DNA of 30,025 bases from the NCBI GenBank assembly GCA_037447435.1, contig JBBIGR010000053.1, forward strand, positions 1 through 30,025, given 5' to 3'. A program made the position numbers and the translations under genes. Positions 139-13,508 of the stretch are shown one piece after another. Position 1 is the stretch's first letter; each line of letters begins with the position of its first letter. The notes below the pieces were generated by a model that saw nothing but the letters and a program-made list of their open reading frames with translations, was not told the DNA's origin and did no database searches. The DNA is from Fibrobacteria bacterium. GTDB lineage: Bacteria > Fibrobacterota > Chitinivibrionia > Chitinivibrionales > FEN-1185.

Positions 139-1776
139 TTATTTAATCAAAAGCTTTAATTCTTGCATTGTTTTTCCATATTTGATAAACGCTACATAAA
201 ACCCGCATGGGGTAATATAGCCATTAATGTTTTTCCTATCCCAAACATTTTCATTTGATAATGTGCGGATCAAAGTGCCATTGATATTGTAAATATTAAT
301 TTTTGAATTCAAAGGTATTTCGTTAAATCGGACACCTTTATTTGGAAGATAAGAAACTTCAATTTTCGTGGGCTCTTTGAGAGGTAAAAAGCCTTTTTCT
401 GTTTTAGTTGTAATTGGCCCAAAAAGCGTGTCAATATCCTCTTTAGAAAGGACACGGTTATAGATTCTAACATCGTCAATTTTTCCTATAAAATGATAAC
501 CCGAGCCCCCAGTATGGTCTTGCCCAATAAACAGCCTATGATTGTTGCCTATTGCGCCTGAATCGATCATTGATGTATCAAGTTTTCCGTCAATATATAA
601 CCTTAAATTGTGAATTGTGTCTTTGGTAAGCGTTACCATATGCCAATTCGGAGTACCATCCACTTTTGCAGAGGATTTTAAATCATTATCTAAAAACGGA
701 TCTGAAAAATTTTGCCAAGCACCTAACCTCGCCCCAATACTACCGTTTCCTACGCAATAAATTTGTAAGCCCGGCATAGACATATCTTGCCAATCTATTA
801 AAGTTCGCCAGACCGTATTTACATTGGGTGAATTAAACCACAAAGATACGGTCATTGGAAGTACGAAAGATTGTGTCCCTGCTGTAAGGTAACTATTCAA
901 ACCATTAAACAAATACGCGCTATTAGAATTGCCAAATCTATCGGTCGTTAACGTAGCATTAGAAACAGTGCAATTTTTACCATTTCCACTTTCATCATTA
1001 GCATTTCCGTTAAATGGATAATAGACCGATAAACCCGCTTTAACGTTTTGGGGTGGATTTACAACGGTGCTAATAGAATCAGCAAAAAGGCCTTGGATTT
1101 CCTGTTTTGATAAAGCCCTATTGTACAATCTTATTTCGTCAACCGTTCCTGAATAATAGTCTCCTAATTCTGACGATTCGCAACCTATATAAAGCGGTTG
1201 GTCTGAGGGGAAAAGCGAATCCAAATTGAATTTGCCGCTATTGGCAAGATTTGTATCTGACCAAAGGCATATTGAATCTCCATTGTAAGTAATGGCAGCA
1301 AAATACCAATCAGCAGATTTTAAATTTGCAGGCGCTGTAAAATTATAATTCATGCCTTTATACCCTGGCATGTCGTTGTTAAAGCATATAGATTCACCAC
1401 TTTTGCTAACGTCAAACCGAATTCCAGACCCCCCCAATTTTCTTGGAATGCTGACAACCGCCCCGTTTGCTGTGGGTTTGACCCATGCCGTTATTGTAAA
1501 GCTGTTTTTAAAATGAAAGCAATTTGCGCTTGGTACTACAATCCAGCCACCATTTAGTGAAAGGGCACTGCTATCGCGACCATTTCTATCTTTTACAAAT
1601 TGGGCGCCGGTACTTACACCATGGACTGCACCATTGTTAGCGTTTACAGTACTGTCTTTTAAATTGCCATTAAACGGATAATACGCAACCAACCCGGTCT
1701 GTAAATCAATTGCGCCAGCATTAAAACCGCAGAATGCTAGGATCATTCCGGATACTAATAAATAAAAATGTCGCAT
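139..1776 (-). CDS. Secreted protein with two LamG-like jellyroll (concanavalin-like) domains and a C-terminal FlgD-Ig/T9SS type A-like tail
   Basis: Signal peptide; tandem repeats GLVAYYPFNGN...GTVDEIRLYNRALS and GLSVYYPFNGN...GKIDDVRIYNRVLS; C-terminal KINIYNINGTLIRTL...WD...GFYV tail; AGGAGG RBS upstream. Confidence 0.85.
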   Translation of the reverse strand: MRHFYLLVSGMILAFCGFNAGAIDLQTGLVAYYPFNGNLKDSTVNANNGAVHGVSTGAQFVKDRNGRDSSALSLNGGWIVVPSANCFHFKNSFTITAWVKPTANGAVVSIPRKLGGSGIRFDVSKSGESICFNNDMPGYKGMNYNFTAPANLKSADWYFAAITYNGDSICLWSDTNLANSGKFNLDSLFPSDQPLYIGCESSELGDYYSGTVDEIRLYNRALSKQEIQGLFADSISTVVNPPQNVKAGLSVYYPFNGNANDESGNGKNCTVSNATLTTDRFGNSNSAYLFNGLNSYLTAGTQSFVLPMTVSLWFNSPNVNTVWRTLIDWQDMSMPGLQIYCVGNGSIGARLGAWQNFSDPFLDNDLKSSAKVDGTPNWHMVTLTKDTIHNLRLYIDGKLDTSMIDSGAIGNNHRLFIGQDHTGGSGYHFIGKIDDVRIYNRVLSKEDIDTLFGPITTKTEKGFLPLKEPTKIEVSYLPNKGVRFNEIPLNSKINIYNINGTLIRTLSNENVWDRKNINGYITPCGFYVAFIKYGKTMQELKLLIK

Positions 1777-3394: not shown

Positions 3395-4639
3395 TTATCG
3401 GGCAAAATCCTGTAATTTCATGCCGTCTATCGAAATGTTGTCTAACCAAAGCGTAACTGTGTCGCCGGGGTTATTATCGGGATATTTTGCGACGAACGCG
3501 ATTTTGTAAATCGCGGTGCAGACTTTTTTCCAGGTATATCCCTGGGAAAAGGCGACCGAAGGAATGAAAAGGGAATCGATTGGAATCGAAATGCTTGTCC
3601 ATGTCGAAGGAATCGGTAAGACATGAGAGAATTGAAAGCTGTTGTTTCCGGCCAAGGTATCCAGGATTCGGGAATAAAATCTGACCTCGATTTTGCCCGA
3701 TCCTTTTGCTTCGAATGAAAACGATTTCATTTTCGACAAATCATAAAAGTCGGTCGAATTCGTTGCTCCGATTCTGAACCCGCAAATTGCCCAGGGGAAT
3801 ATCGTGTCGCCCAGCGCGTAAACGATTTTTCTGCTTTGACCTGAAAATGCTTCCCTTCCGTTCGAGTTGTTCTGGAGGATCGTCGAGGTGCCGCCATACG
3901 GCGCATCAAGGACGGAATACCATTCCCCTCCGCCAAGTAACAGCCCCATGGTCGTTTGGCCGGTCGTACCGGAAAAATCGTCAATAAGAACGCTGCTTGT
4001 CGTGATCGGAATATTTCCAAGCGCAGTCGATATCCCCGCTTGGGCGGTGATGTTGCTGCACAGGAACCAAGAAGTTGCGGAATCCGTGGAAACGGACGAC
4101 ATGATGTTGAATGTCCCCTGTGGCAGGCTCGGAAAATAAAAATCGGTTCCCTCGCCGAATGTGGCTTTATAGGCGGTGCCGCTCAATACCATTTTTTGAA
4201 CAACGCCTTGATCGGTGGAAATAAATCCCGAGTATTTTGCAACCGGATGCATGGATAAACTTACCGTATCAGAATCGTGTCCGTACAGGGAAATAATATT
4301 CTTAACGAATACTCCTTCGATGCCGTTGTCGATTTGAATATTGTATTCCGCAGTGTCGGGGACAGAAATCGAATAGTTTCCTTGTGCATCGGTCTGTACC
4401 GAATCAACGACAACCGATTGGTTTTTGTAAATATTATTCAGCCAATTGCGATTGTCGATAAGCAGGATCTTTTCATGGGCGGCAGGCATGCCGTCGCTGG
4501 TAAAAACCCGTCCCTTAAGATTGCCGTTTTCGGAGGTACTGACGCCTCCGGCCACCTTTGTCGGCGATGAGGTACAAGAAAGTAACGAACTTGCCGTCAA
4601 AACGGACAAACACGTTATCATCGTCAATAAACTTTTCAT
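3395..4639 (-). CDS. Lipoprotein: carboxypeptidase-regulatory-like Ig/beta-sandwich domains plus a C-terminal CBM11/CIA30-like carbohydrate-binding domain
   Basis: Lipobox LLSC; SPTKVAGG; C-terminal LIDDF...GGEWY...YDLSKMKSFSFEAKGSG...WTSISIP...LWLDNI; start overlaps the upstream stop (ATGA). Confidence 0.75.
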   Translation of the reverse strand: MKSLLTMITCLSVLTASSLLSCTSSPTKVAGGVSTSENGNLKGRVFTSDGMPAAHEKILLIDNRNWLNNIYKNQSVVVDSVQTDAQGNYSISVPDTAEYNIQIDNGIEGVFVKNIISLYGHDSDTVSLSMHPVAKYSGFISTDQGVVQKMVLSGTAYKATFGEGTDFYFPSLPQGTFNIMSSVSTDSATSWFLCSNITAQAGISTALGNIPITTSSVLIDDFSGTTGQTTMGLLLGGGEWYSVLDAPYGGTSTILQNNSNGREAFSGQSRKIVYALGDTIFPWAICGFRIGATNSTDFYDLSKMKSFSFEAKGSGKIEVRFYSRILDTLAGNNSFQFSHVLPIPSTWTSISIPIDSLFIPSVAFSQGYTWKKVCTAIYKIAFVAKYPDNNPGDTVTLWLDNISIDGMKLQDFAR

Positions 4640-5493
4640 GATAGCGGCCCTTGCGCTTTGTTTTCCATTACGCCGACGTCCTCGCTTATAGGGAACAATT
4701 GGAAGTTAAATTGGTAAACCTGCGAGCTGTGCTCGTCTCGGGTCACGATGGTTTTTACGCGTTCCTTGAATGCAGCCAATTCGGTGAGGAGTACGTCATA
4801 GCAAACGGGTGAAATGCCAAGCGTCATTGAGGAAATATTCCGTTTTGTCGTGGGCAGGCTTTCATTGGCTTCCTTTGCTCTTTCAAGCATGGCGCTATTG
4901 AAGGATCGCCGCGCCAAAGCAACCATTTCATCGTTGCTCACAATGGCCTGATTCGATTGCGCGTAAGTACCGTCGGGTTGCTTTACCAGAAGCTTGAGCC
5001 GTAAAAGGAGCTGAACCGATTTTTCGGCATCCCGCGTGGAAATCGCCGGGCGAACCGCCTTTCCAAGCAAGGAAAAATTGTCCTTAAAATCATGCAAGCA
5101 AACCAATTCCCGAATGATGCTGTGATACCAACTTTCAAAATATGAGAAATGGTCTGCCGATAATTGAAATTCTTGAACATAATCGCCCATGCTCAACAAG
5201 ACGCTGTAATGTTCTTGTTTTTCATTTGCGGTTCGTGCTTGATTGAATAAAACGAGATTACGAAAAAACAGGCTTTCCTTTTTGTTCAAATCCAGGGATT
5301 TTGCAAATTTATCAATCATCGGCGGAGTTAAGTTACGTTTCCCGTCGATAACTTCCTTTAAAAACGCCGGAGATTTTATATCGGAATGCTGGGCAAAATA
5401 GCGATATGAAAAATATCGTGTCGTTTGTTTCTTGTGATTATAAAAATCAGCAAGAAAAACGCGATAATCGATATAACTAAAAATTCGTTTCAT
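4636..5493 (-). CDS. TIGR02147 family protein (N-terminal HTH-like region, C-terminal DUF4423), putative regulator
   Basis: IFSYIDYRVFLADFY..KK....FSYRYFA...SPAFLKEVIDGKRNLT, FRNLVLFNQA, WYHSIIRELV, RNISSMTL, VYQFNFQLFP. Confidence 0.88.
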   Translation of the reverse strand: MKRIFSYIDYRVFLADFYNHKKQTTRYFSYRYFAQHSDIKSPAFLKEVIDGKRNLTPPMIDKFAKSLDLNKKESLFFRNLVLFNQARTANEKQEHYSVLLSMGDYVQEFQLSADHFSYFESWYHSIIRELVCLHDFKDNFSLLGKAVRPAISTRDAEKSVQLLLRLKLLVKQPDGTYAQSNQAIVSNDEMVALARRSFNSAMLERAKEANESLPTTKRNISSMTLGISPVCYDVLLTELAAFKERVKTIVTRDEHSSQVYQFNFQLFPISEDVGVMENKAQGPLS

Positions 5494-5497
5494 ACTA

Positions 5498-5509
5498 GTA
5501 TAAATATAC
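5498..5509 (-). promoter_or_regulatory. GTATATTTATAC element 4 nt upstream of ATG (-10-like box of a nearly leaderless mRNA, or operator)
   Basis: Identical 12-mer at identical spacing before the ATG at 13778; no Shine-Dalgarno. Confidence 0.5.
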
Positions 5510-6025
5510 GCGCTTTATTGTTAGAAAAAACAGAGAAAATCATTATAATGCGCATCTTTTAACAATAATGAGAATGCATATAGTTGTAACATGCTAAAAT
5601 ATAACACTTTAGATATTAGGTTGTTACTGTCTGTAATAGTTTTGAGTACAAAAAATTCAATATTCGGACATAGTTCCGGTTTTGTCGGAAGTTTTAGAGA
5701 TCAGTAGGCTGCTTTTTTTTGTGAGGGGCAATGCGTTTATGTTGTGGAATAAAGGCTTGTGAATAAAATTTAAATATATGAAACATATAATATATAATAA
5801 ATACAATGACTTATGAATAAAAATGATAAATTAATAAAAAAAATAGAAAATATTGAAAGAATTTTAATTGAAATAATGCTATATTATTTGCAATAAAATT
5901 TGAGTTAAAACAAGAGGTTTCAGGAGGATTGCGCCATAGCGGAAGACGTTTGCTATAAATTAAGTGGTCTGCACAGTAATTCGAAAAATGTCTTTATATA
6001 ATCTTTAATCAACGAAGGGGAGTGT

Positions 6026-7189
6026 ATGTCGTTTTTTTCTCAATCGGCCCGTTTGGGGCTCTGGACAATGGCTGCTGTTGCTTGTTTACATGCGCAAACG
6101 GCGACCATGACGGGAATCGTAAAAAACAACACCGGATCCGCATTGAACGGCGCAAAAGTATCGCTTTCCGTTCTCGGGTTGACTACGCAAACGTCGAGTG
6201 ACGGCAAGTTCTCTTTCAGCGGAATAACTTCTGCAGCGGTCGGCTTCCGGGCCCATGCGGTAAATTCGGTAAAATTGCAGGGGACAAAATTCAATCTGAC
6301 GATCGCTTCACAAAGAGAAAAAGTTTCATTGGAATTGTTCGATCTGGCAGGCCGTAACTGCAAAACTTTGATAAATCGGGAACTGCAGTCCGGAGCATAT
6401 GTCCTCGATGCCGCTTCTGCGCAACTACCCGCATCGATGTATGTGGCAAAAATACGGATAGGCACGGTCGTCAACTGTTATACCGTATCATTGCTTAGCG
6501 GAAACGCGGTAAAATCGTTAGGATGCACTCGGTCGGGCAATGCGTCGGGAATCCTTTCAAAGCAAGCCATTGCGATCATCGATACTATTGTCGTCGATAT
6601 GGCCGGATATGGAAAAAGTTATACGCCTATAGCAAAATATGCCAGCGATTACACCATAGTTTTGGATCCCAAAGCAACAGCCGTGAACACGAAGATTTTT
6701 TCCGAACGTGCATTTGCGCAAATCGATTGGGGAAAGACAAATGTTCAAGTTTGGGATAATGCGGGCGGACCTTCCGGGACACAGTTGAATGGCAGCTATC
6801 CGGACGCTTTTGAAGGAGCGGTCGGTTGGAAAGCGGTTTGCGGGTACGGTTTTTCGGTATGGGTTTTTCGTACCGCAAATCCCAATGGTGTCGATATGTC
6901 GGCTTTTGAGGGCGGTTATTTGCATGTTGCCGTTAAAGGAAGCGTTCCGAGTTTAGGCATGTTTGTGACGTCGGTGGGCAGCCAGAATCCGCGATTGGAT
7001 TTGTCGACGCTGGGCTATTCCGACGATGGAAAATGGCATGAACTCAAAATACCTTTGACGAGCTTCGGTACCATCGATTTGTCGAAGCTCGATGTTTATT
7101 GCGGGTTTGCCGCGCCGGCTGTTGATAACGGGGATTATGCCGCCGGATTGTCGTATGTTATAGACGATTTATATTTCATGCCGAAATAA
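6026..7189 (+). CDS. Secreted modular protein: carboxypeptidase-regulatory-like N-domain, internal FlgD/T9SS-tail-like domain, C-terminal CBM-like domain
   Basis: Signal peptide; GIVKNNTGSALNGAKVSL; VSLELFDLAGR..KTL...LPASMYVAKI; DMSAFEGGYLH..KG...DGKWHELKIPLTSF...YVIDDLYF; GGGGAG RBS. Confidence 0.7.
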   Translation: MSFFSQSARLGLWTMAAVACLHAQTATMTGIVKNNTGSALNGAKVSLSVLGLTTQTSSDGKFSFSGITSAAVGFRAHAVNSVKLQGTKFNLTIASQREKVSLELFDLAGRNCKTLINRELQSGAYVLDAASAQLPASMYVAKIRIGTVVNCYTVSLLSGNAVKSLGCTRSGNASGILSKQAIAIIDTIVVDMAGYGKSYTPIAKYASDYTIVLDPKATAVNTKIFSERAFAQIDWGKTNVQVWDNAGGPSGTQLNGSYPDAFEGAVGWKAVCGYGFSVWVFRTANPNGVDMSAFEGGYLHVAVKGSVPSLGMFVTSVGSQNPRLDLSTLGYSDDGKWHELKIPLTSFGTIDLSKLDVYCGFAAPAVDNGDYAAGLSYVIDDLYFMPK

Positions 7190-7228
7190 TAACACCGTGA
7201 TGATATCTTTGCCGAGAGGGGTACAATA

Positions 7229-7255
7229 AAAACGGACCGAAATTCGGTCCGTTTT
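7229..7255. terminator. Bidirectional intrinsic terminator between convergent genes
   Basis: Perfect 12-bp stem AAAACGGACCGA-AAT-TCGGTCCGTTTT flanked by A and T tracts. Confidence 0.85.
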
Positions 7256-7304
7256 ATTTTACCCGGTGTTTGGGGAATGGATCAAACCTGTTGCCTGCTT
7301 TTTA

Positions 7305-8612
7305 TCACCTCATGCGTAAAGCCCAATAAATTGAATTCTCAAACAACGTCCAACCCAGTGCGTTAAAATGGACCATTGCGTCGGCATGAAACGAGAATGC
7401 AACCCGCCGTGCGGGTGCTTGCATGGTAAACATTTGCGCCCCTATATCATACGTAAATAAAATAACATGATTGACATCGCCGTAAACCGATACGACAAGT
7501 TTGCTGAAATCGTTCGGCCTTCCCCAAACCATTGGTAAAGAATCCGTTTCGACGATTTGAATGCCTGCTAATCCCGGTGAAATCGGGTTTGCGACATCGC
7601 GCATTTCAACAATGGTCAGTTTCAGGGAATCCGGAATCGAGGAAACGCTGTCCTTGTTATAAACGGTAAAATCGGTTCCTCTTATTTTTCCGGTCATATC
7701 GAGCAATGGATAGGTTGCCGGTTGGCAAGTGATTATCGGAATGGACAATGTTTTCAAAAAGCCGAGTGAAGCGCCGCTTACCAACGGGGATATCAGCACA
7801 AGGTCCTTGTTATTGCAATCTGCGGCCAAAACAGCTGATTCTGCTTTTGTCACGACCGCCAGGCCGGTTCGTCCGATATTGGAAACGATCAAATCCTCCG
7901 CAGGGGCAAGGGCCGAATTCGCACAGATGAGCAAACAGGTCGCAGTACCGGCAGCGGTCGTGCAATTCGGTTGAACCTGAATGTTTTTCGCGACAGAAAA
8001 CGTCGGCTCTTCGCTGTAATAGTCGTAATAGGCAAGAGACGGCAATGAGCCGGCCGGAATATGATCGATAATGACGGCACTTTGGGTGGTAGGGATCCTT
8101 GTATAAACGTCGGTACCGGGTATGAAAAGAAAAGCGCCTGGCAATAAGGGCTTGTTGGGCAATAATGCGACAAAAAGCGCTCCCGGCTTTCTGAGTGAAT
8201 CGCTGCGCAGCACGATCGTATCGGCGTTTTTGACGGCTATGTTAGGAATGTATAACGATGTCCGAAGATCGGGGCCTGCTTCATAAACCGCATACACCGC
8301 ATAATTATTGCTTTTAACGTCTGAGAAACTGTACACTCCGTTGGAATCTGTCGCGGTACTATATGAAAAAGAGTCTGTAGAAGTATCTTTAGTTTGCAAA
8401 GGATTGTAGTCTTGAGGCAATAGTCTGACCGTTATTCGCGATACTGCCGTACCGCCGGCTGTGGTTATAGAGCCCGATATTTTTGCATTGGAAACGTCTG
8501 TCCCGCCTCCGGCAACGGTAGGGCTTTTCGACGCACATCCAAAGAATAACGAAGCGCAAATTGTTAGGCCAAGCAAGAGGAACGAGGCGGTATTACGGTT
8601 TACCATGCGCAT
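7305..8612 (-). CDS. Lipoprotein: carboxypeptidase-regulatory-like domain plus a C-terminal alpha/beta (class I GATase-like, apparently non-catalytic) domain; alternative start 8606
   Basis: Lipobox FFGC; SPTVAGGGTDVSN; TDSNGVYSF; C-terminal DLVLIS...PARRVAF...GWTLFENSIYWA; overlaps the end of the upstream TIGR02147 gene. Confidence 0.7.
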   Translation of the reverse strand: MRMVNRNTASFLLLGLTICASLFFGCASKSPTVAGGGTDVSNAKISGSITTAGGTAVSRITVRLLPQDYNPLQTKDTSTDSFSYSTATDSNGVYSFSDVKSNNYAVYAVYEAGPDLRTSLYIPNIAVKNADTIVLRSDSLRKPGALFVALLPNKPLLPGAFLFIPGTDVYTRIPTTQSAVIIDHIPAGSLPSLAYYDYYSEEPTFSVAKNIQVQPNCTTAAGTATCLLICANSALAPAEDLIVSNIGRTGLAVVTKAESAVLAADCNNKDLVLISPLVSGASLGFLKTLSIPIITCQPATYPLLDMTGKIRGTDFTVYNKDSVSSIPDSLKLTIVEMRDVANPISPGLAGIQIVETDSLPMVWGRPNDFSKLVVSVYGDVNHVILFTYDIGAQMFTMQAPARRVAFSFHADAMVHFNALGWTLFENSIYWALRMR

Positions 8613-9450
8613 CTGCCTTTGTCAAAGGAAACAGATTGACGTTTACCTGATAAACCCTGTTAACATGAGAATCGGCTTTTGCAATTTCTAAAAGTTCGAG
8701 CCGCATTTGTTCTATTCGTTTGATTGCCATATCGTAGCTTTTTTCGGAAAGGCTGAGCGTTGTATTGGATGTGTTTCGTTCGGTTTTAAGCCTTTCACTG
8801 AGCGACTGTGCGGCAAAATGAACCATAGTTTTGTGAAATGCCCTTGCAATCGTATTGAGCATTTCCTGTTCGCCGATATCGCCGGTTGCCAATGTCTTGT
8901 CTTTTTTTACCAGTTTTCCGCTCTCATTTCTGCCGATAAACCCTTTTTTTTCGAGAAATGCGAGCGAGCCTGCAACGTCGCCCGAATCGACGGAAAAAAG
9001 CAATTTTTTGGCAATCCAATTGGGATCGTCGACAAAATCGGGTAATTCCACCATTTCCCTGATTACACAATGATACCATTTCGCAAGGTAATCAAATTCT
9101 TCAGGTAAAAGCTTTTCAGGCCTGTTTTTTTTTCGGAATTTATTTATCGTGTCGAGGTGCATCCCTTTTTCTTCGAGGGATGTCGCTTGATTAAAAAAAA
9201 CGAGTTCGGTAAAGTAGTCCGCTTGCTTTTTCTTTAAATGCAACCCCGTTATTATCTTTTGAATGCTTTGAGGCGTGAGGTTTTTTTTGCCTTGCATGAC
9301 CAATTTTAAAAAACTGGGCGATGAAAACCCGGTCATTTCGGCAAATAAACTGAAAGTAAATCGATCCGAAGAGGTTTTTTTTCTGGAATAAAATTCCTTT
9401 AAAAAAAGCCTGAAATCGGAAAAATTAAAAATTTCCTTATTGATGTTCAT
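8593..9450 (-). CDS. TIGR02147 family protein (second copy)
   Basis: IFNFSDFRLFLKEFY..KK, SPSFLKLVMQGKKNLT, LVFFNQA, WYHCVIREMV, RNTSNTTL, VYQVNVNLFP. Confidence 0.88.
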   Translation of the reverse strand: MNINKEIFNFSDFRLFLKEFYSRKKTSSDRFTFSLFAEMTGFSSPSFLKLVMQGKKNLTPQSIQKIITGLHLKKKQADYFTELVFFNQATSLEEKGMHLDTINKFRKKNRPEKLLPEEFDYLAKWYHCVIREMVELPDFVDDPNWIAKKLLFSVDSGDVAGSLAFLEKKGFIGRNESGKLVKKDKTLATGDIGEQEMLNTIARAFHKTMVHFAAQSLSERLKTERNTSNTTLSLSEKSYDMAIKRIEQMRLELLEIAKADSHVNRVYQVNVNLFPLTKADAHGKP

Positions 9451-9641
9451 AGTTGCATTCTCAATCAGTATGGTTAAAGAGTGTAAAAGCAGGTGCTTTC
9501 ATACTCATTGTACCACTTTTTATAGGACTATTCTATAATAAAAATAATGAAAAATTTTCCATGTATTATGAAAATCATTTTTACAACAATGTAACATATT
9601 GAAATATAAGGCCTTTAACTAATATAAAAAATAGAATAAAG

Positions 9642-11810
9642 TCATGTTCCAAAGGGGGCCGGATGATTAGGATCCACAATTTCAAGGACCTTTATCAACT
9701 CCTGCAGACTGTACGGTTTTCTTAGTACGGCGGCAAACCCGTACTCATGATAATTTGCGATTTCCACATTTTCGGAATACCCGCTGGAAAGGATAATCGG
9801 AATCGAGGGGGAATAATGCGCAATTTTTTGCGCAAGTTCTTTTCCTCCCATACCTGCGGGCACGGTCAAATCGGTAATGATGAATTTATATGATGAGTTC
9901 GAATTAAAACCGTCTTCAAATTTACTCAGCGCCTCTTCGCCTGTTTCTGCTTCGTCAACATGGTAGCCGAGTTGCTTTAAGAGCATAGACAAAGTCAGAC
10001 GGATGACTTTAACGTCGTCCATAATTAATACCCGCTGTGAATTTTCGTTATAGGGCGCAACGGGAAGAAAATTCGTCTGACTGTCTCCGGATACGGCCAA
10101 GGGAAGATACACGACAAACGTAGATCCTTTGCCGATTTCCGACGATGCGACAATATGGCCGTTGTGGCGTTTTAACACCATGAACGCGATGGCAAGCCCC
10201 AGGCCGTTGCCAGATTTCTTTGTTGTAAAATACGGTTCGAAAATTCTCGGCAAAATATGAGAAGGAATACCGCATCCTTGGTCTGAAAAAGATACGACGA
10301 AATATCGTCCGGCTCCCAGGGAACTTATGTGTTTTTCCGAAATATCCTGGATTGCGCTGCACACTTTAAGTATGCCGCCCGACGGCATTGCCTGGCATGC
10401 ATTGATTACGATGTTTTGAAATACCTGGCGGATTTGACTTTCATCGGCATGTATTCGCACACTTTGTTTGGGTTGATCGAACAATAATTTTACCTTGCTT
10501 CCGCGGGTGGAAAAAGTACATGCGTCGACAAGAATATCCAATACGTTGAAATCTTCGCATACGGGTCTGCCGCCTTTTGCAAAGGTCAACAATTGATGGG
10601 TGAGGCCCCTGGCCTCGAGCGCAGCCCGTTCGCCCTCTGCAAGGACATCATAAACCGCCTTGTTTTGTTCCGTGTTGATTTTTGCATAGCTGAAACTGGA
10701 AACAATGCCGCAGAGAAAATTGTTGAAATCATGGGCTATTCCTCCGGCCAAAACGCCGAGAGCTTCAAGTTTCTGCGTGCGCAATTGCTCGGCTTCTACT
10801 TGTTTCATTTGGGTGATGTCGCGTATCGTCAGAATATAATGCAACGTTTCGTCTGCTGCGCTCAGGTTTGTTTTAGTGATGATGGTCGAACGCTTGATTC
10901 CCGCAACATTGAATTCGATTTCAAAATTGTAAAAAGATTTTTCCGAGGCGATTTCGGGAATGATGTCGGGAATTGAAAGCGTTTGAATGGTCTCGGGTTT
11001 GAGTCCGAAAAGTTCGATGGCCGCATCATTTGCCCGGACAACGACTCCGGTTTGATCCAGTAAAAATATCGCATCCCCCGATTCTTTGAAGACCTTATCC
11101 AGAATTTCTTCGAGCTGGTGTATATTGACGGTGAGAAAATTGTGCCTGCGGACCGACCAATAGGCGAACAATTCAATTATAATAGCCGCAATTGATCCGT
11201 ACGTAGAAAGTCTTTGGGTATGAAAAAACGTCGGCGCGATGAGGTGTATACAAACAAGGTAAAAAAAGGACGTTAATATCCCGCAGAGCCAAATAAACAC
11301 TCTTTTTTTATACGATTTGTCCTTTTCCTTCAAGTAGGAGATCACCGCAAGCCCAAGCCCGTAGAGGAAAATCGGGGAAACGTAAACCGCGAATATGATC
11401 CAAAAAATCGCATTCGGCAAGGGCGTATTTATACCGCCGACTATGTTGATGGTGCTTTTATGCATGGGTAAATCGATAAGCGGTAATACGATTGCAATGC
11501 AGGTCGCAAAAAGGCAAATGAAGAAAATCGTGTCCGTTTTCTTTTTGACAAGAGCATAAAAGAAATACAGGACCATGAGGTTGGTCACGAAGAAAATGCT
11601 CGTAGCCGCTTCGAGCAGCAAGTGGCTGGTTTTACCGGGCGGTAAAACACGCATGCAGAAATCACAAAAAGTCAAAAAGAAAAATGCCGCCGCTAATCCC
11701 AAAAAAGCATTGTTCAAACGGTTTTTCCGGCGTTGACCATAGACATATCCGAACAAAAATAAGGTAAAGAATGGCGAAGCAAGCAGTATAGTGGTACTGT
11801 ACAGGATCAT
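9642..11810 (-). CDS. Hybrid sensor histidine kinase: multi-TM (HisKA_7TM-like) sensor, PAS, HisKA, HATPase, receiver
   Basis: About 7 hydrophobic segments; GDAIFLLD...ANDAA PAS; LAGGIAHDFNN; QNIVINACQAM, DQGCGI, FEPYFTTK, GNGLGL; LIMDD...ITDLTVP...KP receiver. Confidence 0.92.
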   Translation of the reverse strand: MILYSTTILLASPFFTLFLFGYVYGQRRKNRLNNAFLGLAAAFFFLTFCDFCMRVLPPGKTSHLLLEAATSIFFVTNLMVLYFFYALVKKKTDTIFFICLFATCIAIVLPLIDLPMHKSTINIVGGINTPLPNAIFWIIFAVYVSPIFLYGLGLAVISYLKEKDKSYKKRVFIWLCGILTSFFYLVCIHLIAPTFFHTQRLSTYGSIAAIIIELFAYWSVRRHNFLTVNIHQLEEILDKVFKESGDAIFLLDQTGVVVRANDAAIELFGLKPETIQTLSIPDIIPEIASEKSFYNFEIEFNVAGIKRSTIITKTNLSAADETLHYILTIRDITQMKQVEAEQLRTQKLEALGVLAGGIAHDFNNFLCGIVSSFSYAKINTEQNKAVYDVLAEGERAALEARGLTHQLLTFAKGGRPVCEDFNVLDILVDACTFSTRGSKVKLLFDQPKQSVRIHADESQIRQVFQNIVINACQAMPSGGILKVCSAIQDISEKHISSLGAGRYFVVSFSDQGCGIPSHILPRIFEPYFTTKKSGNGLGLAIAFMVLKRHNGHIVASSEIGKGSTFVVYLPLAVSGDSQTNFLPVAPYNENSQRVLIMDDVKVIRLTLSMLLKQLGYHVDEAETGEEALSKFEDGFNSNSSYKFIITDLTVPAGMGGKELAQKIAHYSPSIPIILSSGYSENVEIANYHEYGFAAVLRKPYSLQELIKVLEIVDPNHPAPFGT

Positions 11811-11894: not shown

Positions 11895-12725
11895 TTAATG
11901 GCTTCCATTGCTTCGAGCGATTGAAGCGCCGGCATTAAATTTGTAACGGTATTTTTTATAATAGAACAACAGGTACAGCAATATCGAGATTGCCGCAAAA
12001 GGTACGTAATAAAGCATTTCTTCGATAGTGGTTCTTGCGGTTAAAAGATTAAACGGCATGATGCTTCTTTCCTCGACCATATACCATAAATTGAATATGC
12101 CGATGCAAATGTATTCCCAGACCACGCCGGTTGCCCAAATGATTGAAAGTGTCAGGAAAAACGCCGAAATGTCGGATCGTTTATGCGCTAATCCCGTAAA
12201 AATCAGAATGGACATGAATGGGGAAAATGCATAAAAGAAAATGATGTTTTCCAAAATGAAAGTGACGTCATTTCCTATATGTATTGCAAATACCGTACTA
12301 TTTGTGTAAATCCAACCCGATTTTGTCCATATCAAGAGCGTCTCCAAAACAAGCAAAAGAATCCATACGAAAAAAATACTCGGAAAGCAAAGTTTCAGAT
12401 CGACATGACGAATCCATGCTTTAAAGAAAGCCAACGCGAGCATCGTCCCGGAAAAAAAAGCCAAAAAATATCCGATTTGATGCGGCCTCGAGGGCGCAAG
12501 TTTATGCCAAATCAAGAATATTATGCAAACGACAATGGCGAAAAATCCCAAAAAAAGAATGTCTTTCCATAAAGGGGTTTTAAGCCGTTGTTCGATCCTG
12601 TTTTCCAAGCGAGGGTGATACCGGTATTTCGAAAAAACCGGAACATACAAAAGAGCGGTAACGACATATAAGAGTAATTCCAAAGACAAATAAAGATATT
12701 TTAAGAAAAAGGAGAGGATTACCAT
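11895..12725 (-). CDS. Integral membrane protein with two lycopene-cyclase-domain-like (CarR/CrtY membrane type) repeats
   Basis: Repeated E...GWIY...LENIIFF and WE...LWYM...TTIEEMLYY motifs within hydrophobic helices. Confidence 0.55.
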   Translation of the reverse strand: MVILSFFLKYLYLSLELLLYVVTALLYVPVFSKYRYHPRLENRIEQRLKTPLWKDILFLGFFAIVVCIIFLIWHKLAPSRPHQIGYFLAFFSGTMLALAFFKAWIRHVDLKLCFPSIFFVWILLLVLETLLIWTKSGWIYTNSTVFAIHIGNDVTFILENIIFFYAFSPFMSILIFTGLAHKRSDISAFFLTLSIIWATGVVWEYICIGIFNLWYMVEERSIMPFNLLTARTTIEEMLYYVPFAAISILLYLLFYYKKYRYKFNAGASIARSNGSH

Positions 12726-12860: not shown

Positions 12861-13508
12861 TTACAAATTTGCAGTAGTTGTCGATGGCAAAATCGAGGGG
12901 CTGCGGAATTCGAACGTTTGCACCCGCACCCAATTGTTCGGTTGCGCATCGAATTTGGGCCAAAGCGTTAAGAACCCTGGCGTTTGTTTTGTAACCGTAT
13001 CGCTGGACAAAGAGACAAAACAATCGGCTTTTTTTAATGAAAAATTTTCCGGTGCAATTGTGCTTTTTTGATTGTATCCGGAAATATGTCCGTCAAAGCT
13101 CTTGAATGATAAAATCTCCCTGACAGCATTTCCATACCATGAAGGGGTTTCATGGTTCGGCGAGTTCTGGTCGATCCCGGGGTTTTGCTGCAAATGAATG
13201 GCCATTTCCTTTAAAATGATAAAGTTTTCCCGGCGCTCGGAGCTGGTTTTTGCTTGGTTAAAAAGAACAAGATGCCGGAAAAACACGGCTTCACTTTTAT
13301 TAAATCCGATCGCTTTTGCGAATTTATCTATGGTTTTGCTCGATAAATTTCTCTTGCCTTCGATAACCACTTTCAGGAAATTGGGAGAATTAATATTTGC
13401 CCGTCGTGAAAAATACCGGTAGGAAAAATGTTTTTTCTCAGCTTTTAATTCCGTATAATAGTCTTTGAGGAAAATACGGTAATTGAGATATTGAAATATG
13501 GATTTCAT
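12861..13508 (-). CDS. Truncated/divergent TIGR02147 family protein (N-terminal domain intact, DUF4423 region missing)
   Basis: IFQYLNYRIFLKDYY...FSYRYFS...SPNFLKVVIEGKRNLS...LVLFNQA and SWYGNAVRE; after that no match to the other two copies; 215 aa versus 285 aa. Confidence 0.8.
   Translation of the reverse strand: MKSIFQYLNYRIFLKDYYTELKAEKKHFSYRYFSRRANINSPNFLKVVIEGKRNLSSKTIDKFAKAIGFNKSEAVFFRHLVLFNQAKTSSERRENFIILKEMAIHLQQNPGIDQNSPNHETPSWYGNAVREILSFKSFDGHISGYNQKSTIAPENFSLKKADCFVSLSSDTVTKQTPGFLTLWPKFDAQPNNWVRVQTFEFRSPSILPSTTTANL

Follow-up and report, generated by a model that had tools for sequence, protein, structure and literature searches.

Recurrent pairing of TIGR02147/DUF4423 regulators with tagged lipoproteins in Fibrobacterota

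The DNA considered here is a 30,025-nucleotide stretch from a Fibrobacteria bacterium (contig JBBIGR010000053.1), referred to as the window, which carries twice between positions 3395 and 9450 a cassette of two genes. The first encodes a predicted cytoplasmic regulator of the TIGR02147/DUF4423 family and the second, overlapping its end, a lipoprotein with a short conserved sequence, the tag, behind its lipobox cysteine. The pairing of regulator and tagged lipoprotein is far beyond chance, the latter standing behind 25 of the 27 TIGR02147 genes of the window's own genome, and the tag is hardly seen on lipoproteins other than those that these regulators precede. The observation, which originated in a sequence-only reading of the window, is real and stronger than first stated. 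At moderate confidence, the cassette is probably a self-contained unit in which the regulator controls its own operon and the lipoprotein is the regulated cargo. No support was found for a lipoprotein signalling back to its regulator, and the sensor interpretation advanced in that reading is not supported.

Pairing of regulator and tagged lipoprotein

The two cassettes and the regions upstream of them are laid out as follows, Ig-like standing for immunoglobulin-like, HTH for helix-turn-helix and ORF for open reading frame.

3395..4639 (-): lipoprotein 1, 414 aa; signal peptide, Cys22, tag, Ig-like CarboxypepD_reg stalk, CIA30/CBM11-like head
4526..4555 (-): tag of lipoprotein 1, VAGGVSTSEN, residues 29-38, seven residues past the lipobox Cys; tag-profile E 3e-10
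4636..4639 (-): ATGA stop/start overlap of regulator 1 and lipoprotein 1, from the ORF coordinates
4636..5493 (-): regulator 1, 285 aa, TIGR02147/DUF4423; predicted XRE-type HTH, winged helix and long C-terminal helices
5494..5627 (-): upstream region of cassette 1, -10-like TATATT and imperfect inverted repeats; candidate operators, putative function
7305..8612 (-): lipoprotein 2, 435 aa; signal peptide, Cys26, tag, two Ig-like domains, head without known family
8487..8516 (-): tag of lipoprotein 2, VAGGGTDVSN, residues 33-42
8593..8612 (-): overlap of regulator 2 and lipoprotein 2, 20 nt, or 14 nt with Met3 at 8606 as start codon
8593..9450 (-): regulator 2, 285 aa, TIGR02147/DUF4423
9451..9641 (-): upstream region of cassette 2, imperfect inverted repeat; putative function

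Both ORF pairs of this twofold module are confirmed, as are the length of 285 aa claimed for each regulator, their family membership and the two overlaps. The regulators are full-length members of TIGR02147 ('Fsuc_second') and DUF4423 (PF14394), a family that to date is a name without a function. They reach 264.1 and 241.2 bits against the NCBIfam TIGR02147 cut-off of 50, covering profile positions 1-271 and 2-271 of 272, and 107.4 and 112 bits against the Pfam DUF4423 cut-off of 30, while sharing only 32% identity with each other. The segments C-TSSPTKVAGGVSTSENGNLKGRV and C-ASKSPTVAGGGTDVSNAKISGSI, which had been singled out in the two lipoproteins, are present exactly as quoted. That these proteins share a post-Cys segment and an Ig-like domain and are otherwise unrelated is borne out by BLASTP, which aligns residues 14-92 of lipoprotein 1 with residues 18-97 of lipoprotein 2 (29% identity, E 0.001) and nothing beyond these first 80-odd residues.

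The window's own genome (5.05 Mb, 96 contigs) contains 27 TIGR02147 genes, one of them frameshifted. Immediately behind 21 of these lies a tagged lipoprotein, recognised by a lipobox Cys together with the motif C-x(2-9)-[VIL]-A-G-G-x-[ST]-[DE]-x-x-N. In 19 of the 21 immediate pairs the lipoprotein starts before or at the regulator stop, eight having the -4 (ATGA-type) overlap, and the other two are separated by gaps of 12 and 22 nt. A tag profile of 45 columns was built from the 21 N-termini and run on all ORFs of at least 80 aa in this genome, where it found exactly three more matches (E 2e-7, 1.9e-6 and 7.5e-5), each behind an apparently exceptional regulator; two of these lipoproteins are encoded one gene further downstream and one had been overlooked by the ORF rule. 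Circularity affects the 21 training rows and not the three new matches. A further tagged lipoprotein, its motif recognised by eye, follows the frameshifted regulator and completes the 25. All 24 tag-profile matches at E ≤ 1e-3 stand behind a TIGR02147 gene. Strict canonical lipobox ORFs number 101 in the same genome, only six of them tag proteins, and because the profile matches none of the other 95, the tag is not a general lipoprotein feature.

Across the phylum, the family is present in 55 of 61 sampled genomes, at 2 to 39 copies in each Fibrobacterota genome that carries it. In a sample of 34 loci spread over 15 genomes from eight further families, which is non-random in that it was drawn from top-scoring matches, a same-strand lipobox ORF lies right behind 37 of 38 TIGR02147 genes; the tag profile (E ≤ 0.01) matched 24 of the 34 loci, the rest being assessed by eye. 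An independent count was obtained from whole-genome searches with a reference-only alignment of the 25 N-termini from the window's genome. Five further Fibrobacterota genomes, with 9-39 TIGR02147 matches each, yielded 76 tag matches at E ≤ 1e-3, of which 67 start no more than 400 nt downstream of a same-strand TIGR02147 match, one lies 1.9 kb downstream and eight lie elsewhere. No tag match at E ≤ 1e-3 was found in any of five genomes without TIGR02147 (completeness 89-98%, two genera; best E 0.004). The genomes in these counts are related and hence not independent samples. Since 67 of 76 matches are adjacent and none of the five genomes without TIGR02147 has one, tag and regulator family co-occur both in position and in genomes, and the genome-wide enrichment anticipated for tagged lipoproteins behind TIGR02147 genes holds within and beyond the window's genome.

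The family as a whole is large, with 20,650 clusters at 50% identity (E ≤ 1e-3), and also occurs in Bdellovibrionota. In a full-text literature search, which covers articles without their supplementary tables, no paper on the pairing or the tag came up, and the family surfaced only as a DUF4423 Bdellovibrio protein in a proteome table (PMC12546842). Cassette content differs greatly among species of one genus. Among seven genomes of the window's taxonomic family, no DNA-level orthologue of cassette 2 was found, and cassette 1 is matched in its regulator part alone, at 63-68% identity. Tandem arrangements also occur: a Fibrobacter-like genome (G028, C9:1281600-1296200) has four regulator-lipoprotein cassettes in tandem within 14.6 kb, and two more adjacent to each other at another locus.

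Domains and predicted folds of the two partners

The residues ahead of the lipobox Cys, 21 in lipoprotein 1 and 25 in lipoprotein 2, comprise the signal peptide only, and besides it neither protein has a membrane-spanning or cytoplasmic part. The signal peptides run into the Cys as LLSC and FFGC, which fit or nearly fit [LVI][ASTVI][GAS]C. The putatively lipidated Cys is invariant in all 25 tagged lipoproteins of the window's genome, while the residue before it is other than G, A or S in 14 of them (Q, H, R, K, F, L or N); the Fibrobacter-like genome has the canonical S, A or G at this position. Either signal peptidase II is lax in the lineage of the window's genome, or the tagged precursors are handled differently.

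The tag itself has the consensus hydrophobic-A-G-G-x-[ST]-[DE]-x-x-N and lies 3-10 residues after the Cys, the intervening residues of the window lipoproteins being neutral or basic (TSSPTK and ASKSPT). Among orthologues it is the best conserved part of either protein. For lipoprotein 2 identity amounts to 0.81 in the tag, 0.52 in the rest of the protein and 0.29 in the signal peptide, with the nine-residue stretch G35-A43 (GGGTDVSNA) invariant in all six orthologues; for lipoprotein 1 the corresponding values are 0.51, 0.43 and 0.21. Homologues are few, five for lipoprotein 2 and six for lipoprotein 1 among 5.8 billion proteins.

Behind the tag follows an Ig-like stalk that matches CarboxypepD_reg at E 7.6e-4 and 9.7e-6 in lipoproteins 1 and 2, both below the Pfam cut-off. 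The same domain (E ≤ 0.01) is found in 21 of the 24 complete lipoproteins of this genome, usually twice, with seven of these lipoproteins above the cut-off. An envelope proteomics study of F. succinogenes found four 'carboxypeptidase regulatory-like domain' lipoproteins, each of them lower on cellulose than on glucose (PMC6851124).

The C-terminal heads differ, as the sequence-only reading had proposed, and the CIA30/CBM11-like head that it assigned to lipoprotein 1 is matched at a level below the cut-off. This head scores 22.4 bits against a Pfam CIA30 cut-off of 24 (E 1.4e-4), a homologue at 40% identity is named 'Carbohydrate binding domain (family 11)' by JGI, and a second such head occurs in the paralogue L024 (21.2 bits). 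For the head of lipoprotein 2 Pfam offers no family; an alpha/beta fold is plausible from the structural model, and the GATase-like character attributed to it is unconfirmed. In this model (pLDDT 54), residues 1-39, including the tag, are unstructured at low confidence, residues 43-213 are predicted to form two beta-sandwich (Ig-like) domains, and a beta-alpha-beta pattern extends over residues 225-297 at pLDDT 56-78, the model being unreliable after residue 290. Sequence searches of both lipoproteins against the PDB returned nothing meaningful.

Among the 24 complete lipoproteins, Laminin_G_3, alone or with DUF2341, forms the head in six, CIA30/CBM11-like domains in two, NHL in two (one weak), Kelch in one and LRR in one, while nine, including lipoprotein 2, have a head of no family and three short proteins (231-242 aa) have none. 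The three stalk-only lipoproteins are followed on the same strand by, respectively, a DUF2271 periplasmic protein with multihaem cytochromes, a response regulator and an uncharacterised 236-aa protein. The 'head' of such proteins may be supplied as a separate gene.

The regulators are predicted to be two-domain DNA-binding proteins, which agrees with the cytoplasmic HTH-type regulator that had been proposed. At the sequence level, Pfam HTH_3 exceeds its own cut-off on one paralogue (24.7 versus 23 bits) and weak HTH_3 or HTH_31 matches occur in seven of 25 paralogues; the two window regulators have no HTH_3 match at E ≤ 1. The family profile finds HigA and C.BclI in the PDB weakly at residues 24-74 (E 0.3-0.8), and hhalign of the family against HTH_3 proteins of the same genome gives a probability of 88% (E 3.1e-6). 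An AF2 model of regulator 1 built from the 25 paralogues (pLDDT 89.7, pTM 0.61) was compared with 48,161 chains by VIA-align. Residues 7-93 match Caur_2278 (Z 8.8), HigA bound to DNA (Z 7.8, root-mean-square deviation (rmsd) 2.7, 75 aligned), DdrO (Z 7.8, rmsd 2.5) and P22 c2 (Z 6.9, rmsd 2.6), which at these middling Z-scores corresponds, in the predicted model, to a five-helix fold of the lambda-repressor kind. Residues 110-208 match winged helices of the ArsR/SmtB (CmtR, CzrA), PadR and MarR types at Z 6.4-7.6, and the sub-threshold Foldseek list contains MarR-type regulators (winged helices, E 0.07-0.9), C.AhdI and a HigA-like protein. Regulator 2 has in addition a weak FabT/MarR-family match over residues 143-219 (E 4.9e-4; cut-off 200 bits). 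A single MarR-family match occurs in the genome.

On sequence and fold together, the N-terminal domain is predicted to be an XRE-type HTH, and on fold alone the second domain is predicted to be a winged helix; the absence of a DNA-binding fold, which would have told against a regulator, is not what the model shows. Among solved chains, Kfla_6221 of Kribbella flavida (PDB 4g6q), of unknown function, is alone in spanning most of the modelled DUF4423 part; it aligns with residues 107-269 over 148 positions (Z 7.5, rmsd 5.6, 14% identity; Foldseek E 0.2) and, unlike the window regulators, has no XRE domain. A large family without known function gains a concrete role in this way, namely that of a predicted two-domain DNA-binding protein hard-wired to tagged lipoproteins with exchangeable heads.

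Control of the cassette and competing explanations

In the favoured explanation, the cytoplasmic TIGR02147/DUF4423 protein would bind near its own promoter, at a site used by its cassette alone, and would thereby govern both its own expression and that of the translationally coupled lipoprotein gene that follows, an autoregulation that would resemble that of the controller (C) proteins of restriction-modification systems. The lipoprotein would be an envelope or surface cargo composed of a common stalk (tag and two Ig-like domains) and a changeable binding head, whether lectin-like LamG, CBM11/CIA30-like, LRR, Kelch, NHL or of no known type. The tag would then be a short linear motif, situated in a flexible tether and recognised by some envelope component for sorting, export or processing.

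XRE regulators such as C proteins and HigA share the type of N-terminal fold predicted for the window regulators (Z 7.8 for HigA with DNA; Foldseek TM 0.58 over 68 columns for C.AhdI). As with C proteins, the TIGR02147 gene comes first in its operon, overlaps the cargo gene and has a putative promoter abutting its start codon. Unlike C proteins and HigA, which measure about 70-140 aa, the window regulators comprise 285 aa, with a winged-helix domain and long helices, and the cargo is a lipoprotein instead of a nuclease or toxin. The window holds no restriction-modification genes, and with imperfect upstream repeats and no C-box-like operator demonstrated, its regulators do not qualify as C proteins.

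Most regulator genes in the window's genome are preceded by a -10-like cGTATATTAT element, at a distance of 7-60 nt from the start codon. In several TIGR02147 genes TATAAT, TATACT or TATATT ends 7-9 nt before the ATG, which leaves no room for a ribosome-binding site, and judging from these distances several of the genes appear to be leaderless. A near-leaderless transcript is suggested for cassette 1 as well, because its TATATT (5503-5508) is only 9 nt before the ATG at 5493. Exact direct or inverted repeats of at least 9 nt (at least 3 G/C) precede 14 of 25 regulators compared with 67 of 400 AT-matched controls (Mann-Whitney p 0.004), and they differ from one cassette to another. Imperfect inverted repeats are found upstream of cassette 1 at 5515-5526/5557-5568 (92%) and 5586-5604/5609-5627 (79%), where they represent candidate operators, and upstream of cassette 2 at 9476-9491/9494-9509 (81%). 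No RNA run is listed that contains 3395-9450; the runs with this region are DNA, from one subsurface metagenome study.

Partners that recognise each other usually do not have conflicting phylogenies, and a test for co-phylogeny of regulator and lipoprotein had been proposed. It gave little sign of one. Distances of regulators and lipoprotein stalks show only a weak correlation (Mantel r 0.29; 23 of 5000 permutations reach this value). Head type requires six changes on the lipoprotein stalk tree, as few as this being seen in 2 of 300 shuffles, versus nine on the regulator tree, where the shuffled mean is 8.5, i.e. a random distribution. Three well-supported sister pairs of regulators (51-55% identity) precede lipoproteins with different heads. 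The stalks of the two NHL lipoproteins are sisters (support 99), and the regulator data reject their regulators as sisters (approximately unbiased (AU) test, p 2e-6); the second of the two AU tests evaluated was not significant (p 0.34). A complex prediction of regulator 1, based on the paralogue alignment, with residues 1-45 of lipoprotein 1 scored 0.01 and 0.00, which is no evidence either way. Regulator and cargo look as if they reassort, a pattern better suited to a regulator acting on DNA in cis than to one that recognises its lipoprotein.

Several points weigh against this explanation. The window cassettes have imperfect upstream inverted repeats only (79-92% complementary), and an exact repeat of at least 7 nt with at least 3 G/C is absent upstream of both. 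Foldseek of the regulator model returned nothing at E ≤ 0.001, and the VIA-align Z-scores, at most 8.8, are middling by that tool's own scale; DNA binding and regulation by TIGR02147 proteins, though likely, are predictions. As regards reassortment, the NHL group of the AU test was named after the trees had been seen, one of its two cassettes is atypical in that a further gene separates regulator from lipoprotein, and 13 of 20 inner branches of the regulator tree are open, so that the missing co-phylogeny is partly a lack of signal. A plain model of regulator and cargo leaves unexplained the near-exclusive bond between regulator family and tag, and their joint loss; it is this bond that makes the system interesting.

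Fibrobacterota is a phylum of major plant-fibre and chitin degraders, and the cassettes might be a counterpart of the polysaccharide-utilisation loci (PULs) of Bacteroidota, with a regulator that answers an imported sugar and a lipoprotein that binds the glycan. The lectin-like and CBM-like heads (Laminin_G_3 in 6 of 24, CIA30/CBM11-like in 2 of 24) agree with this proposal, and some cassettes are followed in the same orientation by genes for GH95 (28-nt gap), a beta-helix protein, a GH16-like or a GH99/71-like protein. A glycoside hydrolase (GH) or polysaccharide lyase (PL) Pfam family lies within flanks of about 5-7.5 kb of 12 of the 24 non-window cassettes, but in a leave-one-out count 4 of the 36 remaining proteins from the enzyme families concerned are within 7.5 kb of a cassette versus 7.1% expected (p 0.25), which is no enrichment, and the two window cassettes have no GH or PL neighbour. 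Some heads belong to the LRR, Kelch or NHL types, the three short lipoproteins have no head, other cassettes continue into genes for a response regulator, cytochromes or membrane proteins, and no sugar-binding domain is evident in the regulator model. A polysaccharide link is possible for a subset of cassettes and is not a property of the whole system, for which the PUL-type account is rather unlikely.

Somewhat less probable still is a switchable surface repertoire, in which private autoregulators would make the cassettes bistable and cells would display varying lipoproteins, much as with fimbrial operons that have local regulators. The number of cassettes per genome (27 here, 14 to 39 in five relatives), their strong variation between species of one genus and the scarcity of homologues of lipoprotein 2 are in keeping with it, as are promoters that look leaderless and repeats upstream of the genes. 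Bistability, however, is a purely inferred property, borrowed from controller proteins by analogy, and neither invertible elements nor slippery repeats were seen in the two window upstream regions.

Of similarly low probability is a proposal aimed at the bond that the favoured explanation leaves aside. The tag could be the handle of an undiscovered envelope pathway, serving surface export, anchoring or release at the invariant Asn, with TIGR02147 regulators sensing the load or output of that pathway. A dedicated pathway of this kind would explain the joint gain and loss of tag and regulator family as well as the near-absence of the tag elsewhere and, if real, would make the cassette a new kind of envelope-to-genome feedback device. 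A parallel is the lipoprotein export signal (LES) of Bacteroidota, K-(D/E)2 or Q-A-(D/E)2 after the lipoprotein Cys, described as an address for surface exposure (Lauber et al., 2016, PMC5080379). By that description, both are short motifs directly after the lipidated Cys, and Bacteroidota is a sister phylum within the same superphylum. The tag differs from the LES so described in its sequence (AGG core) and its position 3-10 residues after the Cys, C-TSSPTK and C-ASKSPT of the window containing no LES, and in being restricted to lipoproteins that follow TIGR02147 genes (0 of the 95 remaining lipobox ORFs). If the tag is an export or release signal, knowledge of lipoprotein sorting would extend beyond the Bacteroidota signal.

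Trans-envelope sensing, in which the head binds an external ligand and the signal reaches the regulator through cleavage of the tag or through a released signal peptide, is quite improbable. The strict genetic and phyletic coupling of tag and regulator, the translational coupling of the two genes, a tag that in orthologues is conserved more than any other stretch and includes an invariant Asn, and heads of binding type could all be accommodated by it, and peptide-sensing RNPP regulators likewise have an XRE-type HTH. Against these stand the weakly correlated trees (r 0.29), the one well-supported conflict between them (AU p 2e-6) and the sister regulators (51-55% identity) in front of differently headed lipoproteins. 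Moreover, the lipoprotein has no membrane-spanning or cytoplasmic part beyond its signal peptide, and the second regulator domain resembles a winged helix rather than a peptide-binding repeat domain. For the signal peptide as ligand, an idea of the sequence-only reading, it is weakly adverse that signal peptides are the least conserved segments of all (0.21-0.29 identity). Processing at the tag, by comparison, keeps some plausibility in view of how strongly that segment is conserved.

The SigI-RsgI systems of clostridia are multi-copy pairs of a regulator and an exported protein with variable heads of carbohydrate-binding type, and the cassettes had been likened to them in function. The likeness extends to multiple copies of a regulator joined to an exported protein with variable heads, and it goes no further: TIGR02147 is not a sigma factor (no sigma-family Pfam match at E ≤ 1 among 25 regulator paralogues), the partner has neither anti-sigma domain nor transmembrane helix, the trees are incongruent, and GH and lyase genes are not enriched.

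Further genes in the window

The window contains a third member of the family:

12861..13508 (-): third TIGR02147 gene, truncated; profile positions 1-141 (HTH half) only

Neither a remnant of the C-terminal half nor a tagged lipoprotein behind it was found. N-terminal-only TIGR02147 matches (profile positions 1 to about 110) also occur in three related genomes, and the truncated gene may be a stand-alone HTH form rather than a product of decay. It is followed by a 276-aa polytopic membrane protein without Pfam family (11895-12725, -). A hybrid histidine kinase with a multi-pass N-terminus, PAS, HATPase and receiver domains (9642-11810, -) is encoded on the same strand as cassette 2, 191 nt upstream of it.

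Between the two cassettes, a gene at 6026-7189 (+) encodes a secreted protein that is no lipoprotein and combines a CarboxypepD_reg domain with a C-terminal part of no known kind. It is divergent from cassette 1 over a 532-bp spacer (33% GC) and convergent with cassette 2, and its product has no similarity to lipoprotein 1. Near the beginning of the window, the ORF at 139-1776 (-) has two Laminin_G_3 domains and a weak type-9 secretion tail; its weak Pfam match to a clostridial neurotoxin receptor-binding domain (E 1.4e-4, below the cut-off) was set aside as a reflection of the lectin-like fold. This ORF adjoins an ORF6N-domain protein (2150-2743, -), and a KilA-N protein and an integrase are encoded near other cassettes.

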